From: Bradymonadia bacterium | Lineage (GTDB): Bacteria > Myxococcota_A > Bradymonadia > UBA7976 > UBA1532 | Length of the DNA stretch: 64,000 nucleotides | Assembly (NCBI GenBank): GCA_046290225.1 | Contig: JBKAGE010000034.1 | Location: forward strand, 224,001 to 288,000 | Direction of reading: 5' to 3' | Shown: piece after piece, positions 33,117-50,802 of the stretch | Layout: each line of letters begins with the position of its first letter | How positions within the stretch are numbered: position 1 is the stretch's first letter | Translations under genes and position numbers: made by a program | Notes under the pieces: model-generated | Told to the model about the DNA's origin: nothing | The model's input: the letters and a program-made list of their open reading frames with translations, nothing else | Databases searched by the model: none

Positions 33117-34130
33117 ATGGACAGTTTCATCAAACGCTACTTCTGGATCGTCAACGTGGCGGTCCTCGGGGTCATCGCCTATCTCGGCGCCCGGGTGGCC
33201 AACAATCTGATCGCCGGCGAGATCGTCGGGCTCGCAACGAGCCCTGCGGTGGAGGGCCCCGAAAAAGAGGGCAAGAACGCCAAGAGCAACAAGAAGTCCG
33301 AGCGCAGAGGCCTCGGCTGGGCCGAGCGCATCATGGGGCGCAACCTCTTCAACGCCAACCCGCCTGAAGATCCCGAAGACGGCCCCAAAGATCCCAACGA
33401 CAAGCCAGAAGAGGGCGACAAGCCCGTGGTGGCGAGCGGCGAGATGCCCACCAGCCTCGACGCCTGCGAGAAGAGCGAAGAGCGCATCGTGCTCCTGGCC
33501 ACCATGGTGGCCGAGCCCCAAGAGCTCTCCATGGCCGTCGTGCAGGACAACTCCAACGACCGAATCCTCAAGCCGGGCATGTCCGCCGGTGAAGACGCCG
33601 CGGTGAAGGTGGCCCGCATCAACCGGTCGTGGCTGGTGCTGCAGAACAGCAAGGGCACCTACGAGTGCGTCGCCGTGGGCGGCAAGAAGCAGGCGAAGAA
33701 GAAGAAGGGCCGCGGCGTCGACCGCACGAAGCCCAAGAAGGGCAACCGCGGGGGCAGCCTCACCAAGGCCGACCGCGACGCCATCAAGAACGGCGTGCAG
33801 AAGACAGGCAAGAACGAGTACCAGATCGACCGCGAGATGCTGAACGAGCAGCTCGCCGATCTGAACAAGCTCGCCCGCCAGGCCCGGGTCATCCCCCACT
33901 ACCGCGACGGTCAAGCCCAGGGCTACAAGCTCGTGGGCGTGCGCCCCGGCAGCCTCTACAGCCACCTGGGAGTGCGCAGCGGCGACATCCTCAAAGGCGT
34001 CAACGGCGAAGAGGTCAACAGCCCGAACAAGGCCCTCGAACTCTTCGAGAAGCTCAAGAGCAGCGACAACGTGAGCCTTGAGGTGGAGCGTCGCGGCAAG
34101 CCTGTGGCCCTGGAGTACAACATCAAATGA
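33117..34130 (+). CDS. gspC: Type II secretion protein C (TM, HR and PDZ domains)
   Basis: N-terminal TM, RNLFN, C-terminal PDZ ARVIPHY..GYKL..GVRSGDIL..VNG; first gene of the gsp operon. Confidence 0.92.
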   Translation: MDSFIKRYFWIVNVAVLGVIAYLGARVANNLIAGEIVGLATSPAVEGPEKEGKNAKSNKKSERRGLGWAERIMGRNLFNANPPEDPEDGPKDPNDKPEEGDKPVVASGEMPTSLDACEKSEERIVLLATMVAEPQELSMAVVQDNSNDRILKPGMSAGEDAAVKVARINRSWLVLQNSKGTYECVAVGGKKQAKKKKGRGVDRTKPKKGNRGGSLTKADRDAIKNGVQKTGKNEYQIDREMLNEQLADLNKLARQARVIPHYRDGQAQGYKLVGVRPGSLYSHLGVRSGDILKGVNGEEVNSPNKALELFEKLKSSDNVSLEVERRGKPVALEYNIK

Positions 34131-34879
34131 GACTCCACTGGCTATCATCCATGGCCATCGGCGTGGCCCTCCTGGCGCCCACCGCGGGTGCGGCGAAGTC
34201 GAGCCTTGCCGAGGATTTCATCCAGAAGTGCAAGGCGCTCCCTCCAAACGGCCAGGTCACCCTCGACATCGTCGACGAGCGCCTGCTCACGGTGGGCAAA
34301 GTCGTCGCATGCCTCACGGGCAAGACGGTGACCTTCGGCGACCCGCTCAAGAGCCTCAAGAAAGAGCGCCTGACCATGCTGGGCACAGCGCGATACACCG
34401 CGCCTGAGGTGCTCGAGGCCTTCGTCAACCTAGTCGAACTCAAAGGCTTCACTGTCAAACAACAAGGCAACTTCGTGCACATCGCTCGAGGGCCGCGGGG
34501 CGTACCCTGCGAAGCTCAGACCAAGATGCCCATCGAGCAGGGCGTGCGCGAGGTGGGCGCCAATCACTATCAGCTTGAGCGCAAGATGCTCGATGAGCAG
34601 TTCGCCGACCTGACTCAGCTCGCGCGTCAGGCACGGGTGATCCCCCACTACCGTGACGGCCGGCCTCAGGGCTACAAACTCATAGGCATACGGGCCAAGA
34701 GCCTCTACAGCCATATCGGCCTCCGCAGCGGGGATCTGATCAAGCGCATCAACGGCACTGCGATCAACTCTCCCAACGACGCCTTGTCGCTCTTCGAGAA
34801 GCTCAAGAGCAGCGACACGGTGAGCCTCGAGGTGGAGCGTGCGGGCCAGCCTGTGATGCTCGAGTACACCATCAAATGA
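34127..34879 (+). CDS. Secreted chimeric protein: GspD N0-like domain plus GspC PDZ domain
   Basis: Signal peptide; N-half aligns with N0 of the downstream GspD; C-terminal 115 aa about two-thirds identical (hand count) to the upstream GspC; ATGA overlaps at both ends. Confidence 0.85.
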   Translation: MRLHWLSSMAIGVALLAPTAGAAKSSLAEDFIQKCKALPPNGQVTLDIVDERLLTVGKVVACLTGKTVTFGDPLKSLKKERLTMLGTARYTAPEVLEAFVNLVELKGFTVKQQGNFVHIARGPRGVPCEAQTKMPIEQGVREVGANHYQLERKMLDEQFADLTQLARQARVIPHYRDGRPQGYKLIGIRAKSLYSHIGLRSGDLIKRINGTAINSPNDALSLFEKLKSSDTVSLEVERAGQPVMLEYTIK

Positions 34880-37800
34880 TTTTCAGTATTTCACGACCCC
34901 GGATTTCCAGTCCCTTGTCCCCCAGGATGACGATGACCACCTCGAGGACCACCCCCAGACTCATCGCGCTGCTCGGTTTGCTGATCGGGCTCTTGATCCC
35001 TGCCATGGCAGGGGCTCAGGACGAGCCGCCGAAGCTCAACACGCCTCGGATCCCCAAGCAGCTCGACGTGCCCCAGATCAACCCGGGCAAGCTCCCCACG
35101 GGGCGTGTCAATCCCAAGCTCAAGCGCAAGCTGGGCCGAGATGTGGTGGCCCAAAAGAAGGACGACGCTGCGGAGGCCAAGGCCAAGCCGCCCCCGCGGC
35201 GCCCGCGGCCCCGCACCCGGACGCCCCTGCCGCCCCGTGACACCGCGGGGAAGGCCGGCGCCAGGAGCCGTCGCGACACCAAGGACAAAGACGACGACAA
35301 GGGCGCCGACAAGGACGAGAAGTCCAGCGATCTGCCCAAGTGGCGTCAGCAGGAAGAGAACGAAGAGGACAAGCCCGAGGAGCCCTCCCTCGGCGCCGAC
35401 TTCGTCAAGGCCTGTGTGAAGCTGCCCCGGGGGGCCAAGGTCAGCCTCGACATCTACGAGGAAGAGCTCGAGGCGGTGGTGAAGATCATCGCCTGTATGA
35501 CCGGCAAGAACATCATCATGGCCAAGAGCCTCAAGGGGAAGAAGATCACCATCTACTCCCCCACCCTCGTCACCAGCGGTGAGGCCTACCGGGCCTTCCT
35601 CACCGCCCTCGAGGTGAACGGCTACACCATCTCCAAGCAGGGCAAGTTCCTGCGCATCATCGAGAGCAAGGACTACCTGAGCAGCTCCGATCCGATCCGC
35701 AAGGGCGGCCGGCCCCCGAACGAGGATCGCATGGTCACCCAGCTCGTGGCCCTGGAGCACGTGGACGCTCAGGAGGTCAGCCAGCTGCTGCAGCAGCTCG
35801 CCACCGGCAGCGCCAAGTTCATCGTGTACCAACCCACCAACACGCTCATCGTGAGCGAGGTGGCCAGCAACCTGCGCAAGCTCCTCAGCCTCGTGGACGA
35901 GATCGATGTGCCCAGCGGCTCCGAGCGGCTGTACGTCTATCAGATCGTCAATGCCGACGCTGAAGAGATCAAAAACAAGATCATGGAGATCTACGAGCAG
36001 GACGAAAAGAAGGCCAGCGGCGGTGGAACCACCACCAACAAGAACCGCCGCAAGCGCAAGCGGGGCAAGGACAAGACCCCCGCCAAGCCCACAGGCACCA
36101 GCGTCGGCGAGTCCGGCGCCGACGTGAACGTGAGCAAGATCGTCGCCGACGAGCGCACCAACCGCCTGTTCATCATCACCAACGAGAAGTCCTACCGAAA
36201 GGTCAAGGACCTCATCCGCCGGCTCGACGTGGCCATCCCCGGCGACGGGCAGATCCACATCTTGCAGCTCAAGCACGCCAAGGCCGAGGAGCTGAGCAGC
36301 GTGCTGAGCAACCTGAGCCAGAACGCCAACCGGAACTCCGGCGGCAACCGACGCTCTGGTCGGAACAACAACAGCGGCCGCAACAACCGCAGCGGCAACC
36401 GCAGCGGCAACCGCAACTCCGGTGGCGGTGGGGCTGGTGGCGCAGCCCTCTTCGAGGGCGAGGTGCAGGTCACCGCAGACGCCGACACCAACTCCCTGGT
36501 CATCACCGCCAGCCTGAAGGACTACCTGTCCATCAAGAGCGTGGTGGAGACCCTGGACAAGCCGCGCCGCCAGGTCTTCGTCGAGGCCGTGGTCATGGAG
36601 GTCAGCCTCGACAACGAGCGCCAGTTCGGCATGAGCTTCCACGCCCCCATCCCCGGCACCGAGGTGAGCGACGACAGCTCCCCGCTGCTGCTGGGCAGCT
36701 TCCCCAGCCAGGAGTTCAACTCGCTGTCCTTGAGCCCCAGCCTGCTCAGCGGCTTCGCCGCCACGGCCCTCGGGGAGAACATCGGCGGCAGCAGCGCCTT
36801 CGCCGAGCTGCCCAGCTTCGGTGTGGTGATGCGGGCCCTCGCCAGCAGCGGTGACGTGAACATCCTGTCGACGCCCCACATCTTGACCACCGACAACCAG
36901 GAAGCAGAGATCGTCGTCGGTCAGAACGTGCCCTTCACCACGGGCTTCGGCGGCGGCCTCGGCGCTCTCGGTGGCCTCGGCGGCCTCGGCGGCCAGAACG
37001 CAGCAGGCGGCCTCGGTGGCCTCGGCGGCTTCGGCGGCTTCGGGTTCCCGCAGATTCAGCGTCAGGACGTAGCCCTCACCCTGAAGATCACCCCCCGCAT
37101 CAACGCCGACAACTTCGTCACCATGGAGATCGACCAGGTCATCGAAGAGCTGGGCCCCGAGCCCACGCCGGGCCTCGGCCCCGCAACCACCAAGCGGAGC
37201 GTAAAGACCACCGCCGTGGTGAAGGACCAGCAGACCGTGGTCATCGGCGGTCTGCAGCGGACCACTCAGACCAACAGCGACAGCAAGGTGCCGTTGCTCG
37301 GTGAGATCCCTGTGCTGGGCATTCTGTTCCGCGACTCGGTGCGCCGCAGCCAGAAGCAGAACCTGCTGCTGCTGCTCACCCCCTACGTGGTGGAGAGCTC
37401 GGAAGACTTCAAGACGATCTTCAAGCGCAAGATGGAAGAGCACCAGGAGTTCGTGGCCCGGTTCCAGCAAGAGGGCGACGTGCTCGCCATCGGCGTGGAC
37501 TACCGCAAGAAGCACGGCGTGCTCGAGGCGGTGAACAAGTCCATCACCCTGGCCCGCGAAGAGGAGCGCCTGCTCGAAGACCTGCGCAAGCAGGACATCC
37601 CGCCGATCCTGCCCCAGGACGTGGACGGCATCGTGCTCGAGGCCGACGAGCAGCGCCTCAACCCCGACGTGAAGAAGCGCATGGAAGAGCTACTCAAGGC
37701 CCAGGAAGAGCGCCGCCGGGCCATCGAGCGGGGCATCGACGACACCACGCCTCCCCCCGAGGAGGATGTGGCGCCGCCCCCCATGGACACCACCCCCTGA
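34876..37800 (+). CDS. gspD: Type II secretion secretin GspD (start may be 34927 or 34933)
   Basis: N0-N3 repeats (ADERTNRL, DTNSLVI), LDKPRRQVFVEAVVMEV, STPHILTTDNQEAEIVVGQNVPF, KVPLLGEIPVLGILF. Confidence 0.97.
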   Translation: MIFSISRPRISSPLSPRMTMTTSRTTPRLIALLGLLIGLLIPAMAGAQDEPPKLNTPRIPKQLDVPQINPGKLPTGRVNPKLKRKLGRDVVAQKKDDAAEAKAKPPPRRPRPRTRTPLPPRDTAGKAGARSRRDTKDKDDDKGADKDEKSSDLPKWRQQEENEEDKPEEPSLGADFVKACVKLPRGAKVSLDIYEEELEAVVKIIACMTGKNIIMAKSLKGKKITIYSPTLVTSGEAYRAFLTALEVNGYTISKQGKFLRIIESKDYLSSSDPIRKGGRPPNEDRMVTQLVALEHVDAQEVSQLLQQLATGSAKFIVYQPTNTLIVSEVASNLRKLLSLVDEIDVPSGSERLYVYQIVNADAEEIKNKIMEIYEQDEKKASGGGTTTNKNRRKRKRGKDKTPAKPTGTSVGESGADVNVSKIVADERTNRLFIITNEKSYRKVKDLIRRLDVAIPGDGQIHILQLKHAKAEELSSVLSNLSQNANRNSGGNRRSGRNNNSGRNNRSGNRSGNRNSGGGGAGGAALFEGEVQVTADADTNSLVITASLKDYLSIKSVVETLDKPRRQVFVEAVVMEVSLDNERQFGMSFHAPIPGTEVSDDSSPLLLGSFPSQEFNSLSLSPSLLSGFAATALGENIGGSSAFAELPSFGVVMRALASSGDVNILSTPHILTTDNQEAEIVVGQNVPFTTGFGGGLGALGGLGGLGGQNAAGGLGGLGGFGGFGFPQIQRQDVALTLKITPRINADNFVTMEIDQVIEELGPEPTPGLGPATTKRSVKTTAVVKDQQTVVIGGLQRTTQTNSDSKVPLLGEIPVLGILFRDSVRRSQKQNLLLLLTPYVVESSEDFKTIFKRKMEEHQEFVARFQQEGDVLAIGVDYRKKHGVLEAVNKSITLAREEERLLEDLRKQDIPPILPQDVDGIVLEADEQRLNPDVKKRMEELLKAQEERRRAIERGIDDTTPPPEEDVAPPPMDTTP

Positions 37801-37848: not shown

Positions 37849-39576
37849 ATGAACTACATCACCGAACTCGGTCGCGCCCTCGTCGATCAAGGCGACATCA
37901 GCCCTGATCAACTGCAGCAGGCCATGGTGGAAGCCCAGGAGCGGGGGGTGCAGCTCACCGAGGCCCTCTCCGATCTCAAGCTGGTCGATGGCGATGTGCT
38001 TGCTCGCCGTCAGGCAGAGCAGCTCGGGCTGCGCTACCTCGAGGAGATCAACGTCGATGATGTGTCGATGGAGTACATCGACGACATGTCGGCCACCTTC
38101 GCCAAGAGCAACCTCGTGCTGCCCCTGTGGAAGGCTCGGGGTCGCAAAGTCTACGTGGGCATTTCCGATCCCCTGAACATGGCCACCCTCGATGCTGTGC
38201 GGCTCATGCTCGATCGGCCGGTGATCCCCGTAGTGGTCTCCGAAGCTGTGCTCCTGGGCACCATCAACAAGGTGTACGACCGCAAGGCCGCTGCCCAAAA
38301 CGCCCTCGACCACATCGACGACGAAGAGATCGGCAACGATCAGCTCGACGAAATCGACAAGCTCGACATCATCGATGGCGACGACGAGGCGCCGATCATC
38401 CGCCTCGTGAACGCCATCCTCGGCCAGGCGGCCCGTGAGCGCGCCAGCGACATCCACATCGAGCCCTTCGAGCGGCACATCGCCGTGCGCTTCCGCGTCG
38501 ACGGTGTGCTGCACGAGGTCATGCAGCCCCCGAAGCGGCTCGCCAGCGCCATCACCGCCCGCATCAAGGTCATGGCCGATCTCGACATCGCCGAGCGGCG
38601 CATCCCTCAGGACGGCCGCATCAAGATCAAGGTGGCCGGCAAAGAGATCGACATCCGGCTCAGCACCTTGCCCACCAGCTGGGGCGAGCGGCTCGTCATG
38701 CGCCTGCTCGACAAGACCGCCGTGCTCAAGGATCTCGCCCACATCGGCATGGGCCCTCGACAGCTGGCCATCATCGAAGAGCAGCTCGTCAAGTCGTACG
38801 GCATCATCCTGGTCACCGGCCCTACGGGATCCGGCAAGACCACCTCGCTGTACGCCAGCCTCGCCAAAATCAACAGCCCCACGCGGAACATCATCACGGT
38901 GGAAGACCCCGTGGAGTATCAGCTCGGGGGCATCGGGCAGATTCAGGTGAACACCAAGGTGGGCCTCACCTTCGCCAGCGGGCTGCGGGCGATCCTGCGA
39001 CAGGACCCCGACGTCGTGATGATCGGTGAGATCCGCGACGGTGAGACCGCAGAGATCGCCGTGCAGGCGTCGCTCACCGGCCACCTCGTGTTCAGCACCC
39101 TGCACACCAACGACGCCGCCGGCGCCGTGACCCGCCTCGTCGACATGGGCGTCGAGCCGTTCCTCATCGCCTCTTCGGTGGTGTGCATGATGGCCCAGCG
39201 CCTCGTGCGTCGGCTGTGCCCCCACTGCAAGGCCCCCGTGGTGCCCTCCGAGACCGAGCTGCGTCAGCTCGGCTACGATCGCGAGCGCTTCATGGCAGAG
39301 ACCAGCGGCCACGTGTACCAGCCCGTGGGCTGCGACCAGTGCCTCGACTCGGGCTACCAGGGCCGGACCGGCATCTACGAGGTGTTGCCTGTAGACGACG
39401 ACATCCGCCCCCTGATCATGGACAACGTCGACTCGGGCACCATCAAGAAGGTGGCCATTCGCAAAGGCATGCTCACCCTGCGCGACGACGGCGCCCGGAA
39501 GGTGATGGACGGTGACACCTCCATCGCCGAGGTGCTCCGCGTCACCCAGGACGACATGCTCAACCTCGACGACTAG
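37849..39576 (+). CDS. gspE: Type II secretion ATPase
   Basis: ASDIHIEP, GPTGSGKTT, LRQDPDVVMIGEIRD, LHTND, two CxxC motifs. Confidence 0.98.
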   Translation: MNYITELGRALVDQGDISPDQLQQAMVEAQERGVQLTEALSDLKLVDGDVLARRQAEQLGLRYLEEINVDDVSMEYIDDMSATFAKSNLVLPLWKARGRKVYVGISDPLNMATLDAVRLMLDRPVIPVVVSEAVLLGTINKVYDRKAAAQNALDHIDDEEIGNDQLDEIDKLDIIDGDDEAPIIRLVNAILGQAARERASDIHIEPFERHIAVRFRVDGVLHEVMQPPKRLASAITARIKVMADLDIAERRIPQDGRIKIKVAGKEIDIRLSTLPTSWGERLVMRLLDKTAVLKDLAHIGMGPRQLAIIEEQLVKSYGIILVTGPTGSGKTTSLYASLAKINSPTRNIITVEDPVEYQLGGIGQIQVNTKVGLTFASGLRAILRQDPDVVMIGEIRDGETAEIAVQASLTGHLVFSTLHTNDAAGAVTRLVDMGVEPFLIASSVVCMMAQRLVRRLCPHCKAPVVPSETELRQLGYDRERFMAETSGHVYQPVGCDQCLDSGYQGRTGIYEVLPVDDDIRPLIMDNVDSGTIKKVAIRKGMLTLRDDGARKVMDGDTSIAEVLRVTQDDMLNLDD

Positions 39577-39587
39577 GCCCAGGGCGT

Positions 39588-40814
39588 ATGGCGACTTACG
39601 ATTTCAAAGGTCTCGACAAGCGAGGCAAAGAGGTCAGCGGGGTCCGCGAGGCCGAGAACGAGAAGGCCCTGCGGCAGCTGCTCAAGAAGGAAGGCATCTT
39701 CCTCACCAAGGTGGGCAAGGGCGGCAAGAAGGGCGGCAGCTTCCTCTCGGCGGAGGTCGACTTCGCCCAGATGTTCGAGAAGATCAACGGCCAGGACATC
39801 GCCATCCTGACCCGGCAGCTCGCCACCCTGCTCAAGGCCAGCATCCCCGTCGTCGACGCCCTCGGGGCCTGCGTCGAGCAGGTGGAGAAGCCCAAGCTGC
39901 GCAAGGTGGTCAGCCAGCTGCGCCAGGAGGTGAACGAAGGCACCAGCCTCGCCACCGCCCTCGAACAGCACCCCGACATCTTCAGCCCCATCTTCCCCAA
40001 CATGGTGAAGTCGGGCGAAGCCAGCGGCACCCTCGACGACGTGCTCATGCGCCTCGCGGAGTTCACCGAAGCCCAGGTGAAGCTCAACCAGAAGGTCAAG
40101 AGCGCGATGACCTATCCGGTCATCATGGTGGGCATCGGCGCGTTGATCCTCGCGGGTATGTTCGCCTACGTGATCCCGCAGATCACGCAGATCTTCGAAG
40201 ACACGGGGCAGGAGCTGCCCTGGATCACGAACGCCCTCATCAGCGTCAGCAACGGCTTCCGGTCATACTGGTGGGTGGGCCTGCTGATGGCCTTTGGCGG
40301 CATGACCATGTTCCGCCGCTGGAAGGCCACCAAGAACGGCGCCCTCAAATGGGACGAGATCAAGCTCAAGCTCCCAGTCTTCGGGCAGCTCACCTTGATG
40401 GTGGCCATCGGACGCTTCACCAAGACTCTGGGCACCCTGCTGCGCTCCGGCGTGCCATTGCTCACCGCCCTGGACATCACCAAGAACGTGCTGGGCAACC
40501 GGGTGCTCATCGAGATCATCAGCGACGCCCAGGTGGCCGTGAAAGAAGGCTCCAGCCTCTCGATCACGCTCAAAAAGAGCGGGCGCTTCCCGCCCATCGT
40601 CACCAACATGATCGCCATCGGTGAGCGCTCCGGCGCTCTGGAAGACATGCTCAACGTCGTGGCTGAAGCCTACGAGAGCCAGGTCGAGGGGCGCATCGCC
40701 GCCCTCACCAGCCTGCTCGAGCCGGTCATGATCGTGGGCATGGGCGTCACCATCGGCATCATCGTCTTTGCGGTGCTCATGCCGATCCTGCAGCTCAACG
40801 AGTTCGTCAGTTGA
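39588..40814 (+). CDS. gspF: Type II secretion inner-membrane platform protein
   Basis: TRQLATLL, GEASGTL, AMTYP, GERSGAL, LLEP. Confidence 0.97.
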   Translation: MATYDFKGLDKRGKEVSGVREAENEKALRQLLKKEGIFLTKVGKGGKKGGSFLSAEVDFAQMFEKINGQDIAILTRQLATLLKASIPVVDALGACVEQVEKPKLRKVVSQLRQEVNEGTSLATALEQHPDIFSPIFPNMVKSGEASGTLDDVLMRLAEFTEAQVKLNQKVKSAMTYPVIMVGIGALILAGMFAYVIPQITQIFEDTGQELPWITNALISVSNGFRSYWWVGLLMAFGGMTMFRRWKATKNGALKWDEIKLKLPVFGQLTLMVAIGRFTKTLGTLLRSGVPLLTALDITKNVLGNRVLIEIISDAQVAVKEGSSLSITLKKSGRFPPIVTNMIAIGERSGALEDMLNVVAEAYESQVEGRIAALTSLLEPVMIVGMGVTIGIIVFAVLMPILQLNEFVS

Positions 40815-41929
40815 AGTGGCTCAACCTCCTCGTCGATCGGCGGGTGGCCCTCCTCGTGGGTGGGTCCGCTCTGCTGCTCGACTTGCTCTCCAAAGAGCTG
40901 GTGACCACCCTGCTGCCCGAGGGCAGCCAGGTCACCGCCGGGCCGCTGATGATTCAGCACGCCCGGAACCCGGGCGTGGCCCTGGGCACCTTTGGTGGGC
41001 TCTCCGAGGGGGTGCGCATGTCGCTCGTGGTGGTGGGCATGCTGGTGGCGCTCTTCGTGGCCCTGCCCTGGCTCGCCCGACGTCTGCGGGCGGGGGCGCT
41101 GAAGCAGACCGCCGTGGCCCTGGTGATCACCGGCGCCATCGGCAACTTCGCCGATCGGCTGCGCTACGGCTCAGTCATCGACTTCATCGGTCTCGATCCG
41201 GCGCTGGGTATCCCTTCTCCGGTGTTCAACCTCGCCGACGTAGCCATCGTCGTCGGCGCGGCGCTGTTGCTGTGGGGCCCCAAGCGCACGGGGCCTGGCC
41301 GCGGCCAGCCGCTGCCTCAGGATTCGTGGCCGGGCATTTCGGAGAGCAATCCCGGTACTCAAGACTCTTCCTGGACGATCATCGCCGTGCGCCGCGCCCC
41401 CACCAAAGAGGTGGTGGCCTCGTCGATCAAGCTGCTGGGCGTGCTGCTCGCGGTCAGCGTGGCCCTCGGCGCCCCCAAGGCTCAGGCGCAGGGCGACGCT
41501 CAGGCAGGCCAGGTGGCCTCGATGAACGCCCAGATGCGCATGATCCGGCAGGCCGTGCAGGCCTACCACCTGCAGCACAAGCGTCACCCCGAGCAGCTCG
41601 AGGCCCTCGCCTCGCCGCCGGAGGGTCAACCATTTCTGAAAGCCCAGCACCTGATCGACCCGTGGGGCATCCCCTACACGTACCAGGTCCGTGGCGAAGC
41701 CCTCGACATCATCAGCGCCGGACACGATGGCAAGCTCGGCTCCGACGACGACGTGATGCTCGTGGGCAACACCTTGAAGCACCAGGGCCCCATCGACTTC
41801 AGCCCGCGCCCCGCCCCCAAGAAGAGCAACACCCTGCCCCTGGCCCTCATCGGGGGCTTCACCGTGGTGTCTCTCGTGGCCTGGCGCATGCTGCTGGCGA
41901 AGAAAGCGAAGGCCGATGCCCTGGCTTGA
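40811..41929 (+). CDS. lspA: Lipoprotein signal peptidase II fused in frame to a GspG-type pseudopilin domain with a C-terminal TM
   Basis: LspA motifs D..SK, NPGVALG, GAIGNFADRL, VIDF, FNLAD; then DPWGIPYTY..ISAGHDGKLGSDDD; TTG start overlaps the gspF stop. Confidence 0.85.
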   Translation: MKWLNLLVDRRVALLVGGSALLLDLLSKELVTTLLPEGSQVTAGPLMIQHARNPGVALGTFGGLSEGVRMSLVVVGMLVALFVALPWLARRLRAGALKQTAVALVITGAIGNFADRLRYGSVIDFIGLDPALGIPSPVFNLADVAIVVGAALLLWGPKRTGPGRGQPLPQDSWPGISESNPGTQDSSWTIIAVRRAPTKEVVASSIKLLGVLLAVSVALGAPKAQAQGDAQAGQVASMNAQMRMIRQAVQAYHLQHKRHPEQLEALASPPEGQPFLKAQHLIDPWGIPYTYQVRGEALDIISAGHDGKLGSDDDVMLVGNTLKHQGPIDFSPRPAPKKSNTLPLALIGGFTVVSLVAWRMLLAKKAKADALA

Positions 41930-41962
41930 TCATCTCTGCTCGGCGCGCCACCTCTCAGAGGC

Positions 41963-42026
41963 GGCGATTCTGGCAACTGAACCCCGCCAAACTGACACAT
42001 GCCCTCGCATTCACGTCAATTTGGCA
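41963..42026. promoter_or_regulatory. Second cluster of YGYCA-N3-TGRCA sites, upstream of gspG
   Basis: CGCCAaacTGACA (41985-41997) and CGTCAattTGGCA (42014-42026) resemble the sites upstream of gspC. Confidence 0.45.
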
Positions 42027-42135
42027 AAGCGAACCATCTGATATCAAAAGAGGAATCAACATCCTCTCCCAAGCGATTGAGTCCAGTGAGAACGGGGCGG
42101 AGCACCTCACATCACTGGGCCAGAAGGAGGTAACC

Positions 42136-42612
42136 ATGAACTTCAATCGGTCCCGTTGGGCACGTCTTCTCCCCCAGCGCACTGCTGCGCGTCTGCAGGC
42201 TCGTCAGGGCGAGGCCCCCATGGCCGCCCGTCGTCGCCAGAAGGGTATGACCCTCCTGGAGATCATGATCGTGATCACCCTCATCGGGGTGGTCATGGCG
42301 GTGGTGGTGACCAACGTCATCGGCGCCGGCGACAACGCCAAGATCTCCGCGGCGAAGACCAAGATGCAGAGCATCAAGCAGCAGGTGGACATGTACTACA
42401 CGATGTTCGACGAGTACCCGGACAACCTCCAGGCCCTCGTCAAGCCCCCCGCTGGTCGCAAGCCCCTCATGAACAAGAACGGGCTCAAGGACCCCTGGGG
42501 CAAGAAGTTCAACTACAGCAACCGCGATGGCGACATCCAGCTCAGCAGCTCGGGCCCCGACCGCAAGGAAGGCACCCAGGATGACATCAAGTTCGGCGGT
42601 GAGGAGCAATAA
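42136..42612 (+). CDS. gspG: Major pseudopilin GspG (copy 1)
   Basis: AAGGAGGT RBS; QKG|MTLLEIMIVI; KDPWGKKFNY..SSGPDRKEGTQDDI. Confidence 0.93.
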   Translation: MNFNRSRWARLLPQRTAARLQARQGEAPMAARRRQKGMTLLEIMIVITLIGVVMAVVVTNVIGAGDNAKISAAKTKMQSIKQQVDMYYTMFDEYPDNLQALVKPPAGRKPLMNKNGLKDPWGKKFNYSNRDGDIQLSSSGPDRKEGTQDDIKFGGEEQ

Positions 42613-42703
42613 AGGCCTGAGATAGGCCCCTGGGGCCCTCTGCGTCGAACGCGCGCCATCGTTTCACACATCCGCAGTGTGCGGATAGAGGAGGAAGCAG
42701 GAG

Positions 42704-43123
42704 ATGGGCAGGTTCAACACGCAGAGGCGCCTCGACGCGAGGAAGCGGCATCCCAAGGGATACAGCTTGATCGAGATCCTGGTGGTCATCTCACTCATCG
42801 GTGTGGTGATGGCCATCACAGTGACCAACGTGATCTCGCTGATCGATGAGGCGAACATCAAGGCCACAAAGGTCAAAATCAAGCAGGTGGCTGACCAGGT
42901 GGTCCAACACCGGGTCATTCACGACGAGTACCCCGGGCGCCTGGAAGACAAGGTGCGCCGCCCGAACGGGCGATCCGGGCCGATGAAGGCCGACGCGCTC
43001 AAGGACGCCTGGAAAAACCCCTGGGCATACAAGAGCGGCGAGCGTGACTTTGATTTGAGCAGCGCCGGGGTCGATGAAGACCACGGTACTGAAGACGACA
43101 TTCACCACGACGAGGACACCTGA
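42704..43123 (+). CDS. gspG: GspG paralogue (copy 2)
   Basis: PKG|YSLIEILVVI; KDAWKNPWAY..SAGVDEDHGTEDDI. Confidence 0.88.
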   Translation: MGRFNTQRRLDARKRHPKGYSLIEILVVISLIGVVMAITVTNVISLIDEANIKATKVKIKQVADQVVQHRVIHDEYPGRLEDKVRRPNGRSGPMKADALKDAWKNPWAYKSGERDFDLSSAGVDEDHGTEDDIHHDEDT

Positions 43124-43129
43124 ACGCTC

Positions 43130-43315
43130 ATGATCGCTCTTGGCTCCACGACAGCTCGACTTCAGCCTGCGGGGTTCGGATTCCTCGATCTGCTGGTCTG
43201 GCTGACGGTGCTGGTGATCATCGGCACCATCATCCTGTCGTTGACCACCGACGGCTCCAACACGTCCGAGGATCCGCGCCTCGACGCAACCACTCAAGGA
43301 GCCGCGGCTCAATGA
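43130..43315 (+). CDS. Very small prepilin-like protein, 61 aa
   Basis: QPAG|FGFLDLLVWLTVLVIIGTIILSL; fills the gap between gspG2 and gspH; stop overlaps the gspH ATG. Confidence 0.6.
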   Translation: MIALGSTTARLQPAGFGFLDLLVWLTVLVIIGTIILSLTTDGSNTSEDPRLDATTQGAAAQ

Positions 43316-43983
43316 CCCCCGCCCCCACCATACTTCGACGGCAGCCCCGTGGGCTGACCCTGCTCGAGGTGCTCATCGTGCTCTCGCTGATGGCTGTGGC
43401 CATCGGCATCGCCGTGGGCAATCTCAGCGGGGCCAGCAGCATGCGGCTGCGGACGGAGACCAACAAGGTGGCGGCGGCGGTGCGCTATGCCTACAACCGC
43501 TCTTCGGCGCTTGGCCTGTACATGCGCATGGTCATCGACATGGACGCCCACAGCTACTGGGTCGAGTCGTCTGATCAGCCCAACTTCCTCACGAAAGACA
43601 AGCGCCAGCAGGGCGACGATCCCGAGGCAGAGGAAGCAGAGAAGATCGCCGAAGAGCAAGAGGACGGGGTCTCTCAGAAGTACAAGACCCGGGCGCGGTT
43701 CAGCACCGACGAGGTGATCCCCAAGGTCACCTTCGAGAAGGGCATCAAGTTCGGCGGGGTGATGACCTCGAGCCAGGATGATGTCTTCGAGCAGGGCCGG
43801 GCCTACATCCACTTCTTCCCCAACGGGTTCGTGGAGCCCTCGATCATCTACACTGTCTACGAAGACGAGTACTACACGCTGCAGGTGAACCCGCTCACCG
43901 GGAAGGTGACCCGCAAGGCCGGGCGCATCGATCCCGACAGCAACTTCGGCGAGCCTGAGGACGTCGAGGAGGAGGGCCGATGA
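43312..43983 (+). CDS. gspH: Minor pseudopilin H
   Basis: PRG|LTLLEVLIV; FFPNG; operon position. Confidence 0.85.
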   Translation: MTPAPTILRRQPRGLTLLEVLIVLSLMAVAIGIAVGNLSGASSMRLRTETNKVAAAVRYAYNRSSALGLYMRMVIDMDAHSYWVESSDQPNFLTKDKRQQGDDPEAEEAEKIAEEQEDGVSQKYKTRARFSTDEVIPKVTFEKGIKFGGVMTSSQDDVFEQGRAYIHFFPNGFVEPSIIYTVYEDEYYTLQVNPLTGKVTRKAGRIDPDSNFGEPEDVEEEGR

Positions 43984-44627
43984 TCGCGTCTTTCCGTCGT
44001 GCACGGCGGGCCCGAGGCTTCACCCTGCTCGAGGTCATGATGGCCATGGCCATCCTCGCGGTGTCGCTCTCCGCCCTGGTGGGGCACCAGTCCGTGGCGA
44101 TTCAGATGTCGGACTACAGCAACAAGGCCAGCCAGGCCACCTACCTCGCCGAGGGCAAGCTCCTCGACGTGGAAGACCAGATGTTGCGCGACTCCATGGA
44201 CGTGCTCGACAACTGCGATCAGGGGGACTTCCGCCGAGAGGGGCTCAAGCGCTTCAAGTGGAAGGCCTGCGGCTACAAGCTGGAGATCCAGGACGGCACC
44301 GCCGAAGCCCTCACCGAGAAGTTCATGGCTCTGCTCGGCGGCCTCGGTGGTGGTTTGCCCGGCGGCCTCGGCGACGCCGCAGGTGGCATCGCCGCCAACC
44401 CCAACGTACAAGGGCAGCTCGCCCTCGCCGTGGGCCTGTTGCCCACCATCATCGGCCAGCTCGAAGACAAGATTCGCAAGGTGCGCGTCGAGGTCAACTG
44501 GACCGATCAGACCGGCGATCACGTCATCACCCTCGAGCGCTTCGTCACCTCGCTGGGCATGCCCGCCTCGGGCACACCGCCGCCAGCAGATGGTGAGGTC
44601 GTCGCCCCCCTGGAGCAGCCCCAATGA
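43980..44627 (+). CDS. gspI: Minor pseudopilin I
   Basis: ARG|FTLLEVMMAMAIL; RKVRVEVNW; operon position. Confidence 0.85.
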   Translation: MIASFRRARRARGFTLLEVMMAMAILAVSLSALVGHQSVAIQMSDYSNKASQATYLAEGKLLDVEDQMLRDSMDVLDNCDQGDFRREGLKRFKWKACGYKLEIQDGTAEALTEKFMALLGGLGGGLPGGLGDAAGGIAANPNVQGQLALAVGLLPTIIGQLEDKIRKVRVEVNWTDQTGDHVITLERFVTSLGMPASGTPPPADGEVVAPLEQPQ

Positions 44628-45421
44628 CACGCTACGCTCACAGACGCGTGGCGCCCAAGGGGTTCACGCTGCTCGAGGCCCTCGTGGCCCTGGCCATCCT
44701 CGGATCCATCGGGGCGTTGCTCTATCGGAGCATGTCCACCTCGTTCCGGGCCAAGGCCTGGGTGAGCGAGGTGAACGATCGCTATCACGAGGGCCGGCAG
44801 GTGATGAACCGCATCACCTCCGAGCTGCGCATGGCCTTCCTGACCTTCGAGGTGCCAGAGCAGCTGCGGGAAGAAAACCCCGCGGTGCTCACCCGCTTCG
44901 AGGGCAGCGAAGATCAGATCCACTTCGCCTCGACCTCTCACCTGCGCCTCGTGGCCAACGCCCGCGAGTCGGATCAGGCTGAGATCGGCTACTTCCTGAA
45001 GAATAACAACCGCCGCGACTCCAAATATCGAGGCAAGACGCTGTTCCGCAGGGAGAGCAAGCGCCTCGACGACAAGTACGACAAGGGCGGCAGCATCTGG
45101 CCCGTGGTCGATGGTGTACGGGTGTTCAAGCTCGAGTACTGGGACGAGACAAAGGCCATCGGCGACGACGCCTGGCAAAGCGACTGGGACACCCAGAGCG
45201 ACGATCAAGATCTGCTGCCCTCGCGCATCCGCATCACCCTGGAGCTGGACTCCGGTGACGAGCGGCCGCCGATCCGCTTCGTGGCCCAAGCAGCGCCCCG
45301 GCTGCGGCGCCCCATCGCCGCCATCGACAGCTTCGTGCCTCAGCGGGCGATCCGAAATGCCGCTCAGGAGCAGCTCGACAACGCCGCTGATCCGGCCAAC
45401 CCCCCGAACCTGAGGCGATGA
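44624..45421 (+). CDS. gspJ: Minor pseudopilin J
   Basis: PKG|FTLLEALVALAIL; W..DWD..LPSRIRITL. Confidence 0.88.
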   Translation: MTRYAHRRVAPKGFTLLEALVALAILGSIGALLYRSMSTSFRAKAWVSEVNDRYHEGRQVMNRITSELRMAFLTFEVPEQLREENPAVLTRFEGSEDQIHFASTSHLRLVANARESDQAEIGYFLKNNNRRDSKYRGKTLFRRESKRLDDKYDKGGSIWPVVDGVRVFKLEYWDETKAIGDDAWQSDWDTQSDDQDLLPSRIRITLELDSGDERPPIRFVAQAAPRLRRPIAAIDSFVPQRAIRNAAQEQLDNAADPANPPNLRR

Positions 45422-46785
45422 TGATGCCCACGACCCATACCCGACCCCGGGGGCCCAGAGGTGTGGCCATGGTCATGGTGCTCGTCGCCGTGCTCATCCT
45501 CACGCTGGTGCTGCTCGAGTTCTCCAAGACCAGCCGCACCCACCTCAACCAGGGGGTAAACGTCCGCGACACCGTGCGGGCCAATGTCATCGCCGAGACC
45601 GGCATGGTGCTCACCCGAGCCTGCCTCGATCCGAGCATCTGGGGCCCCATGGCGGGCCAGATGGCCAAGATGGATATGCAGAAGGTCTGCAACCTGCTGC
45701 TCGGGGTGTTCCTCGCCGGCCGGGTCGATCTGCCCGTAGGCGGGCTCTCGGTCGAACTCGAAGGCATCGACAACCTCGGCATCGGCAAGGGCGGCCTCGA
45801 AGAGATGGAGCTGGTGCCCGAGGAGTCGTTCATCGGCCTCGCGGGCATGTACTGCCCCAACAACCAGCAGACCGGGGCCCCTGATCTCAACTGCACCTCG
45901 CGCATCCAGACTGCGGGCAAGCTCCGCAGCATCTTGTGCGACCCTGACATTGCTCACGTCTTCGAGAATGAGCAGGAAGACGGCAAGCGCTACACCCGGT
46001 GGGACATCATCACCAACATCGCCGACTGGATGGATCGCGACGACAACCGCATGCAGTTCGACCCGCTCACCGGGCAGTTCATCCAGGGCGCCGGTGAGGG
46101 CGAAGACTCGTATTACGGCGACTCGGACGACCGCTACCGGGCCAAGGACGCCCCCCTCGACAGCATCGAGGAGCTGCGGTTGATCCGGGGCATCAACGAT
46201 GATCTGTTCAACTTCTTGAAAGACCGGGTGAGCGTGCACGCCCGGGAGAAGGTGAACGTACAGACGGCGAGCCGTGACATCTTCGAAGCCCTGCTCCGGG
46301 CCAACGCCCCGGCTTTCCAGGTCATCGAGAACAACTCGTGCGGCGAAGAGACCAGCGGCACGCCCCAAGATCAGATGGATCAGGCCCTCACGATGTACGC
46401 AGATCTCATCGTGAAGGCCCGTGACGACTACGCGTTCCAACGGATGATGTCCGGGAACTTCTTCGGCAACACGTTCAGGAACAATCAGGACTTTCTGCGG
46501 ATCGCGCAAGATCCGCTGGCGAGCCTGATGAACGGGCAAATGGCCCAGTTCAACCCGGCCATGATGCAGCAGTACCTCGCCCTGTCACAGGATCCGACGT
46601 ACGCCATCTTGCGCGGACAGGTCATCAACTGGCAGCAGCTCGCTCAAGGCGTCACCGTTCGGGTGGCCGAGCGCATGTTCCGGTTGAACATCAAGGCCCG
46701 GGTGGGGAACATCTCGCGGCGCGTCATGGCGGTCTTGAAGCAAGACGGCCCCGTGGTGCGTACGCTTTATTATCGGGAGGACTAG
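45418..46785 (+). CDS. gspK: Minor pseudopilin K
   Basis: RG|VAMVMVL (no E5), IADWMDRD, SIEELRLIRGI, VNVQTAS. Confidence 0.9.
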   Translation: MMMPTTHTRPRGPRGVAMVMVLVAVLILTLVLLEFSKTSRTHLNQGVNVRDTVRANVIAETGMVLTRACLDPSIWGPMAGQMAKMDMQKVCNLLLGVFLAGRVDLPVGGLSVELEGIDNLGIGKGGLEEMELVPEESFIGLAGMYCPNNQQTGAPDLNCTSRIQTAGKLRSILCDPDIAHVFENEQEDGKRYTRWDIITNIADWMDRDDNRMQFDPLTGQFIQGAGEGEDSYYGDSDDRYRAKDAPLDSIEELRLIRGINDDLFNFLKDRVSVHAREKVNVQTASRDIFEALLRANAPAFQVIENNSCGEETSGTPQDQMDQALTMYADLIVKARDDYAFQRMMSGNFFGNTFRNNQDFLRIAQDPLASLMNGQMAQFNPAMMQQYLALSQDPTYAILRGQVINWQQLAQGVTVRVAERMFRLNIKARVGNISRRVMAVLKQDGPVVRTLYYRED

Positions 46786-46789
46786 CGCG

Positions 46790-48397
46790 ATGGCCACCAA
46801 GGTGATCGGCCTCGACTTGGGCACTCACACCGTGAAGGTCGCCGAGCTCGTGACGGCGTTTCGCACCCAGGAGTGGGTGGGTTTCGGCACCGAGCCTGTA
46901 GAGACCGAGGGTGACGGCCCGCCCACCATGGAAGAGATCGTCATGGCCGCCCGGCGCCTCCTGGAGCGTCGGGGGCTGCTGGGCGAGACCATCATCACCT
47001 CCCTGCCCTCGGAGGCGGTGTCCACGGTGAGCCTGGACTTCCCCTTCGATCAGCCCAAGAAGATCGAGCAGGTGCTGCCGTTCCAGCTCGAAGAGGTGAT
47101 CCCCCTCGACATCGAAGATGTCGTCTGGGACTACCAGATCGTGAAGAAGACCGAGGAGGGGGCCGCTCGTGTGCTGGTGGCCTACGTCAAAGAGACCCTC
47201 TTCGCGCGGTTCCTCGAGACCATGCAGGCCGTGGATCTCGACCCCAAGGTGGTGGGGGTGGGTCCCCTCACCTTCTACAACCTGTACGACGCCCTGCTCG
47301 GCGAGCACGCCACGGCCCCCACGGCGATCCTCGACCTGGGCCACGCCCACTCCGAGCTGGTGATCTTCGATCAGGGCCAGCCCGTGGTGGTCCGCAGCCT
47401 CTCCGGCGGCGGCCTCGACATCACCGAGGGCCTCGCCGACGCCTTCAACGTCGACATGGTCCGGGCGGAGCAGGGCAAGCACGCCGAGGCCATGGTGGGC
47501 CCGCCGGGCCAGCAGACCGACGACGGCCTGAGCCTGGACAAGCCCAACCGGCAAGAGCTCATCGTCGAGGCCTGCCGCGAGGCCATCGACGACATTTTGC
47601 GCGAGGCCCGGCGCTCCCTGGCGGCCCACTTCGACGCCACGGGTCACCAGATCGGGCAGATCTACCTCACCGGCGGCACCAGCCAGATGCCTGGCCTGCG
47701 GACCTATATCGAGAGTCAGCTCGGGGTCAACGTCGGGGTGCTCAACCCCCTCACCCTGTCGGCGAAGAAGCTGCGGGAAGAGGGCAACCGCATCCAGCCC
47801 TATGTGTCCAAGGCCATCGGCTCCGCTCTGCGCGGCGTCAGCCGGGCCCATCAGAGCCAGATCAACCTGCGCAAGGGTGACTACAGCTACACCGGTGACT
47901 TCGGCTTCTTGCGGGGCCGCATCATCAGCGTGGGCGTCTCCGTGGCCGTCATCGTCATCCTCGCCGCCATGGTGGCGGTGACGAAGAAGCGGGTGCTCGA
48001 GGCGGAGACCCTGAGCCTGCAGGCCCAGGTCGAAGCCCTGAGCATGGAGATCATGGGCGAAGAGACCGACGATCCGGATGAAGTGCTCGAGGCCATGAAC
48101 AGCAAGGCCAACAACCCCGCGGCCCTCATCCCCCAAGAGGACGCCTTCTCAGTGTTGCACGACTTCTCGCGGTTCATCGACTACAAGACCACCATCGACG
48201 TCGATCGCATGAACATCGACATCAGCAACAACCGCATCGAGATCCGAGGGCGTACGCTCTCCGCCGACGACGTGGAGGCCATCGTGGAGTCGCTGCAGAA
48301 GCACGACTGCATCAGCAAGGTCAGCAAGGACCGCAACGAGCGAACCCTCGACAACAAGACCAAGTTCACGTTGTCGATGAACATGAACTGCATCTGA
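46790..48397 (+). CDS. gspL: GspL (PilM-like actin fold, TM, PilN-like domain)
   Basis: IGLDLGTHTVK, ILDLGH, YLTGGTS, INLRKG followed by a TM; operon position. Confidence 0.85.
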   Translation: MATKVIGLDLGTHTVKVAELVTAFRTQEWVGFGTEPVETEGDGPPTMEEIVMAARRLLERRGLLGETIITSLPSEAVSTVSLDFPFDQPKKIEQVLPFQLEEVIPLDIEDVVWDYQIVKKTEEGAARVLVAYVKETLFARFLETMQAVDLDPKVVGVGPLTFYNLYDALLGEHATAPTAILDLGHAHSELVIFDQGQPVVVRSLSGGGLDITEGLADAFNVDMVRAEQGKHAEAMVGPPGQQTDDGLSLDKPNRQELIVEACREAIDDILREARRSLAAHFDATGHQIGQIYLTGGTSQMPGLRTYIESQLGVNVGVLNPLTLSAKKLREEGNRIQPYVSKAIGSALRGVSRAHQSQINLRKGDYSYTGDFGFLRGRIISVGVSVAVIVILAAMVAVTKKRVLEAETLSLQAQVEALSMEIMGEETDDPDEVLEAMNSKANNPAALIPQEDAFSVLHDFSRFIDYKTTIDVDRMNIDISNNRIEIRGRTLSADDVEAIVESLQKHDCISKVSKDRNERTLDNKTKFTLSMNMNCI

Positions 48398-48410
48398 GGG
48401 AGAGATCGTC

Positions 48411-49028
48411 ATGGCAGCACAAGGGCGCATGGCCCGTATGTTCGAGGCCTTCGACCGACTCTCCACCCGAGAGAAGGTCCTGGTCTCTGGTCTGGTGGTG
48501 GGCCTGCTCGCCACCCTCATGGTGGTGGTCTGGATGGTGATCAACCGCCAGATCGAAGAGCTGGAGATCGCCAACGAGGCCACCCGGGAGAGCATCGAAG
48601 AGATCCAAATGGCCAAACAGTCGTTCATGGCCAGCAAGGCGGAGCTCGCCGAGTCTCAGGCCCAGCTCGAGAACAACACGATCAAGCTGGTCCGCGTGAT
48701 GGAGAAGGAGGCAAAGGCCCTCGACATCCGCATCCAGAACTTCAAGGAGAACCGCCGCCCGCTGACGGAGAACTACCGTCTGGCCAAGAAGAACAAAGAC
48801 GGCAAGAAGAGCAAGGGCGTGAAAGATCTCGTAGAGGAGAGCCAGACGGTGACTCTCAAGAAGATCAGCCTGGACCAGCTCTCGAAGTTCATGCGGGCTC
48901 TGGAGCAGCAAAAGGCCCCGGTGCGGGTGACTCAGCTGTCGGTGAACACCTCGCTGAGCAACCGCCAGGAGCTGCGCGAGGTGAAGCTCACCGTAGCGAC
49001 GTATCGCATGGAAGTGGTGGAGAACTGA
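48411..49028 (+). CDS. gspM: GspM-like protein
   Basis: LSTREKVLV then TM, coiled coil and LDQLSKFMRALE; operon position. Confidence 0.8.
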   Translation: MAAQGRMARMFEAFDRLSTREKVLVSGLVVGLLATLMVVVWMVINRQIEELEIANEATRESIEEIQMAKQSFMASKAELAESQAQLENNTIKLVRVMEKEAKALDIRIQNFKENRRPLTENYRLAKKNKDGKKSKGVKDLVEESQTVTLKKISLDQLSKFMRALEQQKAPVRVTQLSVNTSLSNRQELREVKLTVATYRMEVVEN

Positions 49029-49065
49029 TGTTGGCTCTCTACACCGATGGCAGCGAGGGGGCAGC

Positions 49066-50802
49066 ATGTCGAACCTGCTGAAAGCGTTCCTGAAGTACAC
49101 CGGCTACACGGTCTTCTTCCTGGCAGCCTTCGGGCTGTTCTTCTACCTGACCCTCCCCATGGACGAGGTGAAGTCGTACCTGGTACGCGCCGCCTCCGAC
49201 AATCTGAACCTCGAGCTGGAGATCGACGATCTACAGCTCGCGGGCATCTCCACGGTGAAGGCCTCGGGGGTGGTGCTCACCCCCCGCCCCACGCCGGAAG
49301 AGCTCGCGGAGATGGAAGCGGCCATCAAGGCCCGCAAGGAGGCCAAGGCCCGCATTAAGGCACAAGAAGAGGCCGGCGACGCACCGGAGCCTGCAGCGCC
49401 GGCCCCAGCGCCCGCTGTCCCCCCTGATCCGGCAGCCCTCGTTGACCCCGCCGTGCTTGCTGATCCAGCGGCGATGGCGGATCCGGCGGCACTGGCCGAT
49501 CCGGCGGCGCTGGCCGATCCGGCAGCCCTTGCAGATCCTGCAGCCCCGCCTCCCCCTGGCCCCACCCGGGCCCGGATGAAGAAGGGCAAAGCCGCTCGGG
49601 GCAAGAAGGCCAAGAAGGCCAAGAAGATCGAGCTGCCCCCTCTCCCAGCGGGCCCACAGCCCCTGGAGATCACCGAGCTCGAGGTGAACCTTGAGGCCAT
49701 GGCGGCCATCAAGGGAGAGTTTCGGGGCTCGCTGTCTTCAGAGCTGATGGACGGCACCCTGGCGGGCACCTTCGATCATGGCGCCGAAGCGCTGGTCGTA
49801 GATGTCGAAGCCGACAGCCTTGATCTCAGCCAGCTCACGTTTCTCAAGGGCATGCTGCCCATCCCTGTGAAGGGGGTGCTCAGCCTCACCGCCGAAGGTG
49901 ACGTGGCCCGGAACACGAAGGGTGCCTTCCGCCTCGCCACCATCAACGGCAACGCAGAGCTGGACGCGGTCCGCATCAGCGCGGGCCCGGGGATGATCCC
50001 CACGCAGAAGATGGGGAACGTCGAGATCCCCGTGGTGCGCATCGATCGCCTCGGGGGCACCATCGATTTCAGCCAGAAGAAGGCGACGTTCAAGAACGTG
50101 ACCTTCTCGGGCAAGGACATCGAAGGTGAGATCACCGGCTACATCACACTGCACGACAAGATGGAGCGATGGCGCCCGAACTTCCACGTCAGCTTCAAGT
50201 TCTCGAAGGAGTTCCTGGCGAACAACGCCGCGGTGAAGTTCATCATCGAGTCTCGCGACGTGAAGCGGGCGGTGAACACCGACGGCTTCGTGGGCTACAT
50301 GCTCCGTGGCGGCTGGTCGGCGAAGAACTTCCAGCCCCGCCGCGAGAGCCCCTTCAAGAAGAAGTCCCGAGCCAAGAAGCGCGGCGCCGACAAGAAGAAG
50401 AACAAGTCTGCCTCGAAGCGGAAGAACCGCCGCAACAGCAAGAAAGGCACGTCGCTCGCGAACAAAGACAAAGATGATCGCAAGCGCCGCAACCGCCGCC
50501 GCGTCTCTGCCCGCCCACCCAAGGATGACACGACGGCTTCTCGTCGCCCCAAGCCCCTCGGCCGCCCTCAACCTGCAGATCCTGATACTGAAGACGAGGA
50601 GGACGAGGAAGACGAAGAGGATGAAGAGGACGAAGAGGACGAGCCCGACGAGCCCGATACTGAAGAGCCCACCACTGACGAGCCCAACGGGGACGAGCCC
50701 ACTGAGGGCAGTCCGAACGACGATCTGCCTCAGGACGGCGCCGGTGGGGGTGGCCCTGATGACAACGGCGGCGGGCCGGGGCCCAACGACGACTTGCCTT
50801 GA
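49066..50802 (+). CDS. gspN: GspN-like protein with low-complexity insertions
   Basis: N-terminal TM ..FYLTLP, beta-rich core; last gene of the operon. Confidence 0.75.
   Translation: MSNLLKAFLKYTGYTVFFLAAFGLFFYLTLPMDEVKSYLVRAASDNLNLELEIDDLQLAGISTVKASGVVLTPRPTPEELAEMEAAIKARKEAKARIKAQEEAGDAPEPAAPAPAPAVPPDPAALVDPAVLADPAAMADPAALADPAALADPAALADPAAPPPPGPTRARMKKGKAARGKKAKKAKKIELPPLPAGPQPLEITELEVNLEAMAAIKGEFRGSLSSELMDGTLAGTFDHGAEALVVDVEADSLDLSQLTFLKGMLPIPVKGVLSLTAEGDVARNTKGAFRLATINGNAELDAVRISAGPGMIPTQKMGNVEIPVVRIDRLGGTIDFSQKKATFKNVTFSGKDIEGEITGYITLHDKMERWRPNFHVSFKFSKEFLANNAAVKFIIESRDVKRAVNTDGFVGYMLRGGWSAKNFQPRRESPFKKKSRAKKRGADKKKNKSASKRKNRRNSKKGTSLANKDKDDRKRRNRRRVSARPPKDDTTASRRPKPLGRPQPADPDTEDEEDEEDEEDEEDEEDEPDEPDTEEPTTDEPNGDEPTEGSPNDDLPQDGAGGGGPDDNGGGPGPNDDLP
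49426..49551 (+). repeat. 18-bp coding tandem repeat (7 copies, DPAALA-like)
   Basis: DPAALV DPAVLA DPAAMA DPAALA DPAALA DPAALA DPAAPP. Confidence 0.9.

Follow-up and report, generated by a model that had tools for sequence, protein, structure and literature searches.

Recurrent fusions of secretin N0 and GspC-type PDZ domains, putative soluble specificity factors of type II secretion in Myxococcota and relatives

Extra GspC and GspD material beside a type II secretion system (T2SS) is known from the orphan XphA/XqhA pair of Pseudomonas aeruginosa, which may change the set of cargo handled by the main system. These are two full-length proteins with a channel of their own. GspB/OutB is an accessory T2SS protein built around a further copy of one of the core interface domains; the available portions of its description report an HR-like fold that binds N0 and an inner-membrane anchor (PMC9239104). 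According to the available portions of further papers, secretin N0 has a species-specific HR-binding face formed by beta1 and alpha1 (PMC3169554), just some of the cargo proteins require the GspC PDZ domain (PMC12369372), and cargo makes contact with GspC as well as with GspD (PMC7949064).

The gene studied here, ORF X, lies between gspC and gspD in the window (the whole 64,000-nt stretch of Bradymonadia DNA that was analyzed). X resembled GspC (NF041515 GspC_delta) in its C-terminal PDZ module, 69% identical to that of its own GspC. Unlike GspC, it lacked the membrane anchor and HR; in their place were a signal peptide that looks cleavable and the N0 domain of a secretin. With GspD (TIGR02517; PF21305) it shared the N0 fold, a lineage-specific cysteine pair and a signal peptide. 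On the other hand, it had no N1-N3, beta-barrel secretin domain or disordered leader, and cannot form a pore. Compared with GspB/OutB, X supplies the N0 side of the interface plus a PDZ, and is predicted to be soluble. Compared with XphA/XqhA, it is a soluble two-domain fusion. By these defining features, X is neither GspC, GspD nor GspB. As in an accessory class, it is encoded with gsp genes, derives from them and is under purifying selection.

ORF X and its operon

X spans 34127..34879 on the + strand and encodes 250 aa in an intact frame, with an alternative start at Met9 (34151). Its start overlaps the stop of gspC in an ATGA (34127..34130, +), and its stop overlaps the start of gspD in another (34876..34879, +). 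Both overlaps, proposed in the first-pass annotation, were read in the sequence and predict that X is translationally coupled within the gsp operon.

Full-length GspC and GspD were both retained beside X. gspC (TM-HR-PDZ; 33117..34130, +) scored 276.7 bits with NCBIfam GspC_delta, and the gspD secretin gene (34876..37800, +) scored 514 bits with TIGR02517. The remaining T2SS operon (37849..50802, +) contained gspE- and gspF-like ORFs, an LspA-pseudopilin ORF, pseudopilins G-K, and L, M and N-like ORFs. The names gspE and gspF came from motifs and gene order. The remainder of the operon around X was a normal T2SS.

The gspF-gspG interval held a single 372-aa frame (40811-41929, +). In it, an LspA (signal peptidase II) domain at aa 20-155 preceded a stretch resembling a signal peptide and the head of a GspG pseudopilin, and the C-terminus was a hydrophobic tail. 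The head lacked the N-methyl pilin helix and was 31% identical to the neighboring GspG. A close lspA paralogue was found in 5 of 27 family genomes, 3' of gspF in the three loci read, and the uninterrupted frame was found only in this window. A tandem pair of GspG-like pseudopilins (42136-43123) lay 3' of the fusion.

The putative Sec signal peptide of X (34127..34192, +; aa 1-22, last residues A-G-A) was called by eye and hydropathy rather than with a dedicated predictor. It resembled the end of the GspD signal peptide, and X would be exported to the periplasm by Sec. It is followed by the N0 domain (34202..34492, +; aa 26-122, with Cys35 and Cys62, beta1 at aa 44-52 and alpha1 at aa 53-64), a short, low-confidence linker holding a third cysteine (34493..34531, +; aa 123-135), and the GspC-type PDZ module, including an N-terminal helix and hairpin (34532..34879, +; aa 136-250).

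Residues 26-119 of X were identical to residues 171-261 of its own GspD at 36 of 94 positions (38%, E 3e-19). Both cysteines were kept, and they were unvarying in all 20 rows of alignment A2. The corresponding N0 region of gspD (35386-35658, +; PF21305) is the source of the N-half. The C-terminal 115 aa matched the GspC PDZ at 79 of 115 positions (69%), in agreement with the two-thirds counted by hand in the first-pass annotation. The source is 33783-34130 (+) of gspC, and the PDZ-coding DNA was 74% identical (260/350).

The N0 encoded at 35386-35658 carries, throughout the host's order, an N-terminal helix and an invariant cysteine pair, which probably forms a disulfide. Both features were absent from Pseudomonas and Legionella N0 alignments, and the cysteines were placed differently in other myxobacterial families.

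The profile searches that had been proposed as a check gave a divided answer. X scored 159.4 with NF041515 against a cut-off of 150, from the C-half alone (profile positions 190-311). PF21305 hit the N-half at E 0.016, under the Pfam cut-off, so that N0 was weak by Pfam alone. The Pfam scan of X found no PF11356 (HR), and no PF03958 or PF00263, both of which were present in the neighboring GspD.

An AlphaFold2 model of X, made from an alignment of 15 N0-PDZ proteins, had two independent well-folded domains (pLDDT 85, pTM 0.53). The N-half superimposed on XcpQ N0 (4e9j) with Z 11.8 and rmsd 1.6 A over 77 residues, and on secretin N0 3oss_D with Z 11.1. The C-half matched the PDZ domains of PulC (Z 9.5) and EpsC (Z 9.3). 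The N-half thus resembled secretin N0 in predicted fold as well as in sequence.

A misassembly or collapsed repeat was ruled out as the origin of X, because X is a diverged copy (74% DNA identity) and the longest exact repeat that it shares with the flanking genes is only 28 nt. A Logan contig of 6,845 bp encoded exactly the same protein; it possibly came from the same sample, and so was not taken as independent. Neither of the two low-share read runs listed covered X, and such missing cover carries no weight.

Distribution and origins of N0-PDZ proteins

The junction was read in 21 relatives, 20 of the same family and one of a sister family; in every one, gspC lay directly 5' of gspD and X was missing. 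An N0 match was found in 23 of 27 other family genomes, and a short N0+PDZ ORF in just one of them (G008), at an unrelated locus.

A profile of X and the G008 copy was searched against 1.84 billion cluster representatives. N0 followed by PDZ was seen in 15 of the 150 matches listed, the two queries included, and 9 of the 13 non-query chimeras passed the Pfam N0 cut-off. One further N0-PDZ protein came from a separate search. Genomes were also scanned with five pieces of N0; of the 80 loci kept out of 167, six contained N0+PDZ ORFs, and their records were titled Myxococcales, Deltaproteobacteria and Oligoflexales. In all, 22 N0-PDZ proteins were collected and placed on trees.

At least 4 of 401 genomes of the phylum (G000, the host of X; G008; G310; G209) had a listed match spanning both domains, a lower bound, with 181 more matches outside those listed and six candidates scored per genome. 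None of 183 pattern matches among metagenome contigs was confirmed as a close orthologue of X, a protein search with its N-half yielded X alone out of 426 candidates, and the ESM Atlas contained no cluster of at least 50 members that matched both domains.

Ten chimeras had genomic context. X and the L184 copy lay directly 5' of gspD; the other eight had no adjoining gspC or gspD, two of these being at contig ends. Separate gspC and gspD matches were kept in all nine chimera-host genomes checked. The N0-PDZ architecture is thus rare in the phylum, recurrent, and mostly found away from the gsp operon.

Since X passes the GspC_delta cut-off on its C-half alone, automated annotation would call it a GspC. 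Other chimeras, in the few cases where a source name was seen, were labeled hypothetical protein, RseP-like protease or GspD/PulD. Annotation therefore hides the architecture, which is not a common, annotated feature of gsp loci. The view of the first-pass annotation that X is not a described T2SS component was borne out: no N0-PDZ fusion was described in the literature searched (titles, abstract starts and some passages, with few subscription papers covered). These proteins are an undescribed, recurrently evolved T2SS-derived type.

An N-terminal hydrophobic stretch was present in 15 of 16 chimeras checked and a later transmembrane segment in none; 5 of 18 N-termini scanned had a lipobox-like motif. 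The host genome also encodes orphan GspC-type PDZ or GspC-like ORFs (C27:4484-5119, C40:46528-47439, C75:205007-205456), and tandem-PDZ forms of such orphans were common among relatives. X might conceivably serve a different partner in the envelope, for example an orphan GspC-like or another HR/PilP-fold protein, and have been recruited for this rather than for the main T2SS. These extra ORFs, the lipobox-like motifs and the occurrence of N0-like folds in many envelope complexes, as found by structure comparison, would suit such a role. We consider it very improbable: X sits inside the gsp operon, and the only other N0 in the genome is that of GspD.

Separate trees were made for the two halves, as the first-pass annotation had proposed, and both halves traced to gspC and gspD. 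The X PDZ was closest to its own GspC (69%, against 64% for the next) and sister to it (SH-aLRT 89). The X N0 fell within the family's own Cys-pair N0 clade (support 100/100), although its top match was not its own GspD. For the G008 and G310 copies, the best GspC or GspD match of each half was the gene of the same genome. These results support derivation of X from its lineage's own gspC/gspD pair.

One common ancestor of all N0-PDZ fusions was rejected on both halves. With 18 chimeras, nine changes were needed in the N0 tree and nine in the PDZ tree, and 0 of 200 bootstrap trees united the chimeras. With 22 chimeras, seven (N0) and 11 (PDZ) changes were needed; for these trees references were added, 19 earlier reference genomes were dropped, and the PDZ tree was a quick version. 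Of the composite alignment A3, the PDZ rows alone were used. AU tests on 32 rows (11 of the 22 chimeras and 21 references) rejected a single origin with p 8.7e-16 (PDZ) and 3.4e-5 (N0).

About 11 sequences formed an old stand-alone family, distinct from their hosts' GspC and GspD in both trees (N0 support 89/86; PDZ SH-aLRT 92 for 10 members), with mutual identity of roughly 45-60%. The trees indicate at least three independent origins: in the host's order, in family f44 and in the old family. P0034, P0160, P0108 and L184, all on long branches, suggest further ones. A single origin of X and the G008 copy was not rejected (PDZ, p 0.127), and the two were joined at support 70 in the N0 subset, although the full trees placed the G008 copy with its own genome's genes. 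The alignments were short (about 100-115 columns), which makes the fine branching uncertain.

Domain boundaries were nearly identical across the births. The conserved gspC-gspD junction, if duplicated, would place a signal peptide first, N0 second and PDZ last. The tandem duplication suggested in the first-pass annotation was upheld as to origin from the pair, by the trees and the identities. A simple tandem duplication is insufficient, because GspD has a disordered leader of about 120 aa between signal peptide and N0, which X lacks. Loss of this leader would have to follow.

Other rearranged forms were seen. Small genes between gspC and gspD in G098 (L053:2103-3067) and G112 (L054:4373-5513) represent a second kind of secretin fragment, encoding respectively a signal peptide with N0, and a signal peptide with one or two N0-like domains. 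Stand-alone, poreless ORFs with a signal peptide, N0 and apparent N1/N2 repeats (L051:5431-6450, L055:2224-2922, L056:2062-2712 and L061:3395-4111, in G008, G084, G085 and G087) are natural counterparts of soluble secretin N-domain constructs. In the Oligoflexales/Silvanigrellales loci (L176-L196), two tandem gspC paralogues were frequent, and at L184:412-3500 the third gene 5' of gspD was N0-N0-PDZ. P0181 (877 aa, source label Desulfobacterales) was a fusion in reverse order, with GspC HR, two PDZ and four N0.

Selection and persistence

Differences between the X and gspC PDZ were distributed 31/14/45 over the codon positions. In a two-ratio codon model, omega = 1 was rejected on the chimera branch for all six halves of the X, G008 and G310 proteins (p 4e-8 to 0.038). 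Branch omega was below 1 in all six; ML dS was saturated in three of them, and their omega values were left out. Nei-Gojobori dN/dS against the parent gene was 0.36 for the X PDZ and 0.82 for the X N0. Pairs of orthologues from the old family gave 0.11 and 0.53.

As a neutral control, parent domains were evolved stop-free to matched amino-acid identity and scored on chimera-free GspD and GspC profiles. The real halves outscored the simulations (0/500 reached five of them and 1/500 the sixth), which indicated constraint on the protein, not merely on the frame. These results support purifying selection on the N0-PDZ fusions, rather than a dN/dS near 1, although the N0 count was high.

Constraint on X is much weaker than on its parents. 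In its N0, 23 of 44 family-conserved columns were changed, and chimera branches were long compared with those of the parents (PDZ, 0.43-0.48 vs 0.05-0.09; N0, 1.5-1.9 vs 0.2-0.26). Selection may be for foldability alone. The synonymous sites of X were heavily diverged (pS 0.44-0.45), and X has therefore persisted for long.

An RNA-library run contained a 151-nt contig that, apart from one difference, matched the final 135 nt of gspC. Of its next 15 letters, 11 agreed with the start of gspD and 2 with the start of X; the fraction of genome positions matching these letters equally well was 2.4e-5. This one contig, of depth 3, suggests that in a near-identical strain the gspC stop directly precedes the gspD start, without X, by gain or loss. 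Alternatively, it may represent a gene-converted end of X.

An alternative is that X is a tolerated by-product. The adjacency of gspC and gspD would keep yielding signal peptide-N0::PDZ fusions by junction duplication, and selection would keep the X frame open and the product foldable until recombination between the PDZ repeats deletes X. The long branches, the N0 dN/dS, and the lack of X at the relatives' junctions, apparently also in the near-identical strain, would all follow from this. So would the other fragments yielded by the junction: N0-only and N0-N0 (G098, G112) and N0-N0-PDZ (L184). On the other hand, X has persisted long enough for its synonymous sites to diverge, stand-alone copies survive where polarity cannot matter, the old family persists at its considerable mutual divergence, and the GspD leader was trimmed off. 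The simulations also reject a frame-only constraint, though not a fold-only one. We regard a by-product as rather unlikely.

The N0 face and possible roles of X

The beta1-alpha1 segment of X was identical to that of its own GspD at 12 of 23 positions, and the rest of N0 at 15 of 56 (Fisher p 0.039). Among 1079 GspD-GspD pairs of 33-55% identity, none had an excess as large, and beta1-alpha1 was the better conserved part in just 4%. At similar distance these non-independent pairs showed 31% for beta1-alpha1 and 48% for the rest, opposite to X. Within the family, the two parts were equally conserved (0.72 vs 0.71).

The excess was also found in G310 (14/24 vs 20/56) and L184 (11/24 vs 14/56), and was missing in G008 (10/23 vs 26/55) and P0074 (13/23 vs 30/56). 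In the old family, 7 of 23 positions were identical to the hosts' GspD; the host HR face was not kept. A complex prediction with its own GspC-HR (aa 105-192) and X-N0 (aa 23-125) scored 0.01 and weighs neither way.

Recurrent independent births and purifying selection lead us to a tentative reading, at about 40% probability, of X as a putative periplasmic adaptor, an undescribed T2SS accessory. The beta1-alpha1 face would dock on the GspC HR domain or on the N0 ring of the secretin, and the second, diverged PDZ would alter the cargo range. X unites the very regions that are known to determine secretion specificity, and its kept beta1-alpha1, protein-level constraint, recurrence, uniform boundaries and operon coupling are consistent with this role. 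Against it, G008 and P0074 lack the preference for the HR face seen in X, G310 and L184, and the old family has not kept that face. The changed N0 columns and N0 dN/dS, the eight of ten chimeras without adjoining gspC or gspD, and the strain apparently without X also weigh against it. In the available portions of the OutB study, moreover, lone N0 bound OutB-HR at ~10 uM and OutC-HR at only ~1 mM in vitro (PMC9239104).

For XcpQ, the available portions of one report place the cargo (CbpD) site apart from the XcpP site (PMC5646246). This would suit a free periplasmic cargo chaperone (putative), in which N0 and PDZ clamp a folded exoprotein without HR binding and hand it to the machine or withhold it. 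The old family keeps both folds and not the host's HR face, and most copies are unlinked to a gsp operon. Set against this, the HR face is preferentially kept in X, G310 and L184, and no cargo gene was consistently adjacent to the stand-alone copies in ORF lists read by eye. A chaperone is an unlikely role.

A decoy or brake (putative) is slightly less likely again. The soluble N0 would compete for GspC-HR and the soluble PDZ would sequester cargo, damping secretion. X keeps beta1-alpha1, and, in the portions of the same report available, a periplasmic nanobody blocking the N0/HR site was dominant negative (PMC5646246). However, translational coupling would fix the ratio of X to GspC and GspD, and would therefore be a poor design for a switch; a monomer with the ~1 mM affinity above would also compete badly with the secretin ring (PMC9239104).

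The choice of folded cargo by the T2SS is a long-standing question, one that implicates the PDZ of GspC and the N-domain of the secretin. On at least three occasions, selection appears to have united exactly these two regions in one small, predicted-soluble protein. This clearly exemplifies how a conserved gene order can drive the repeated fusion of domains. That Myxococcota and relatives thereby repeatedly and convergently invented a soluble T2SS specificity factor (putative) is a possibility we put somewhat below even odds. For pull-downs and structural work, X offers a tractable bait, and the GspC and GspD of each lineage provide a built-in control. If the adaptor reading is true, a detachable, fast-evolving adaptor would change the secreted repertoire with the core machine untouched, and X would be a natural minimal construct for studying folded-cargo recognition.
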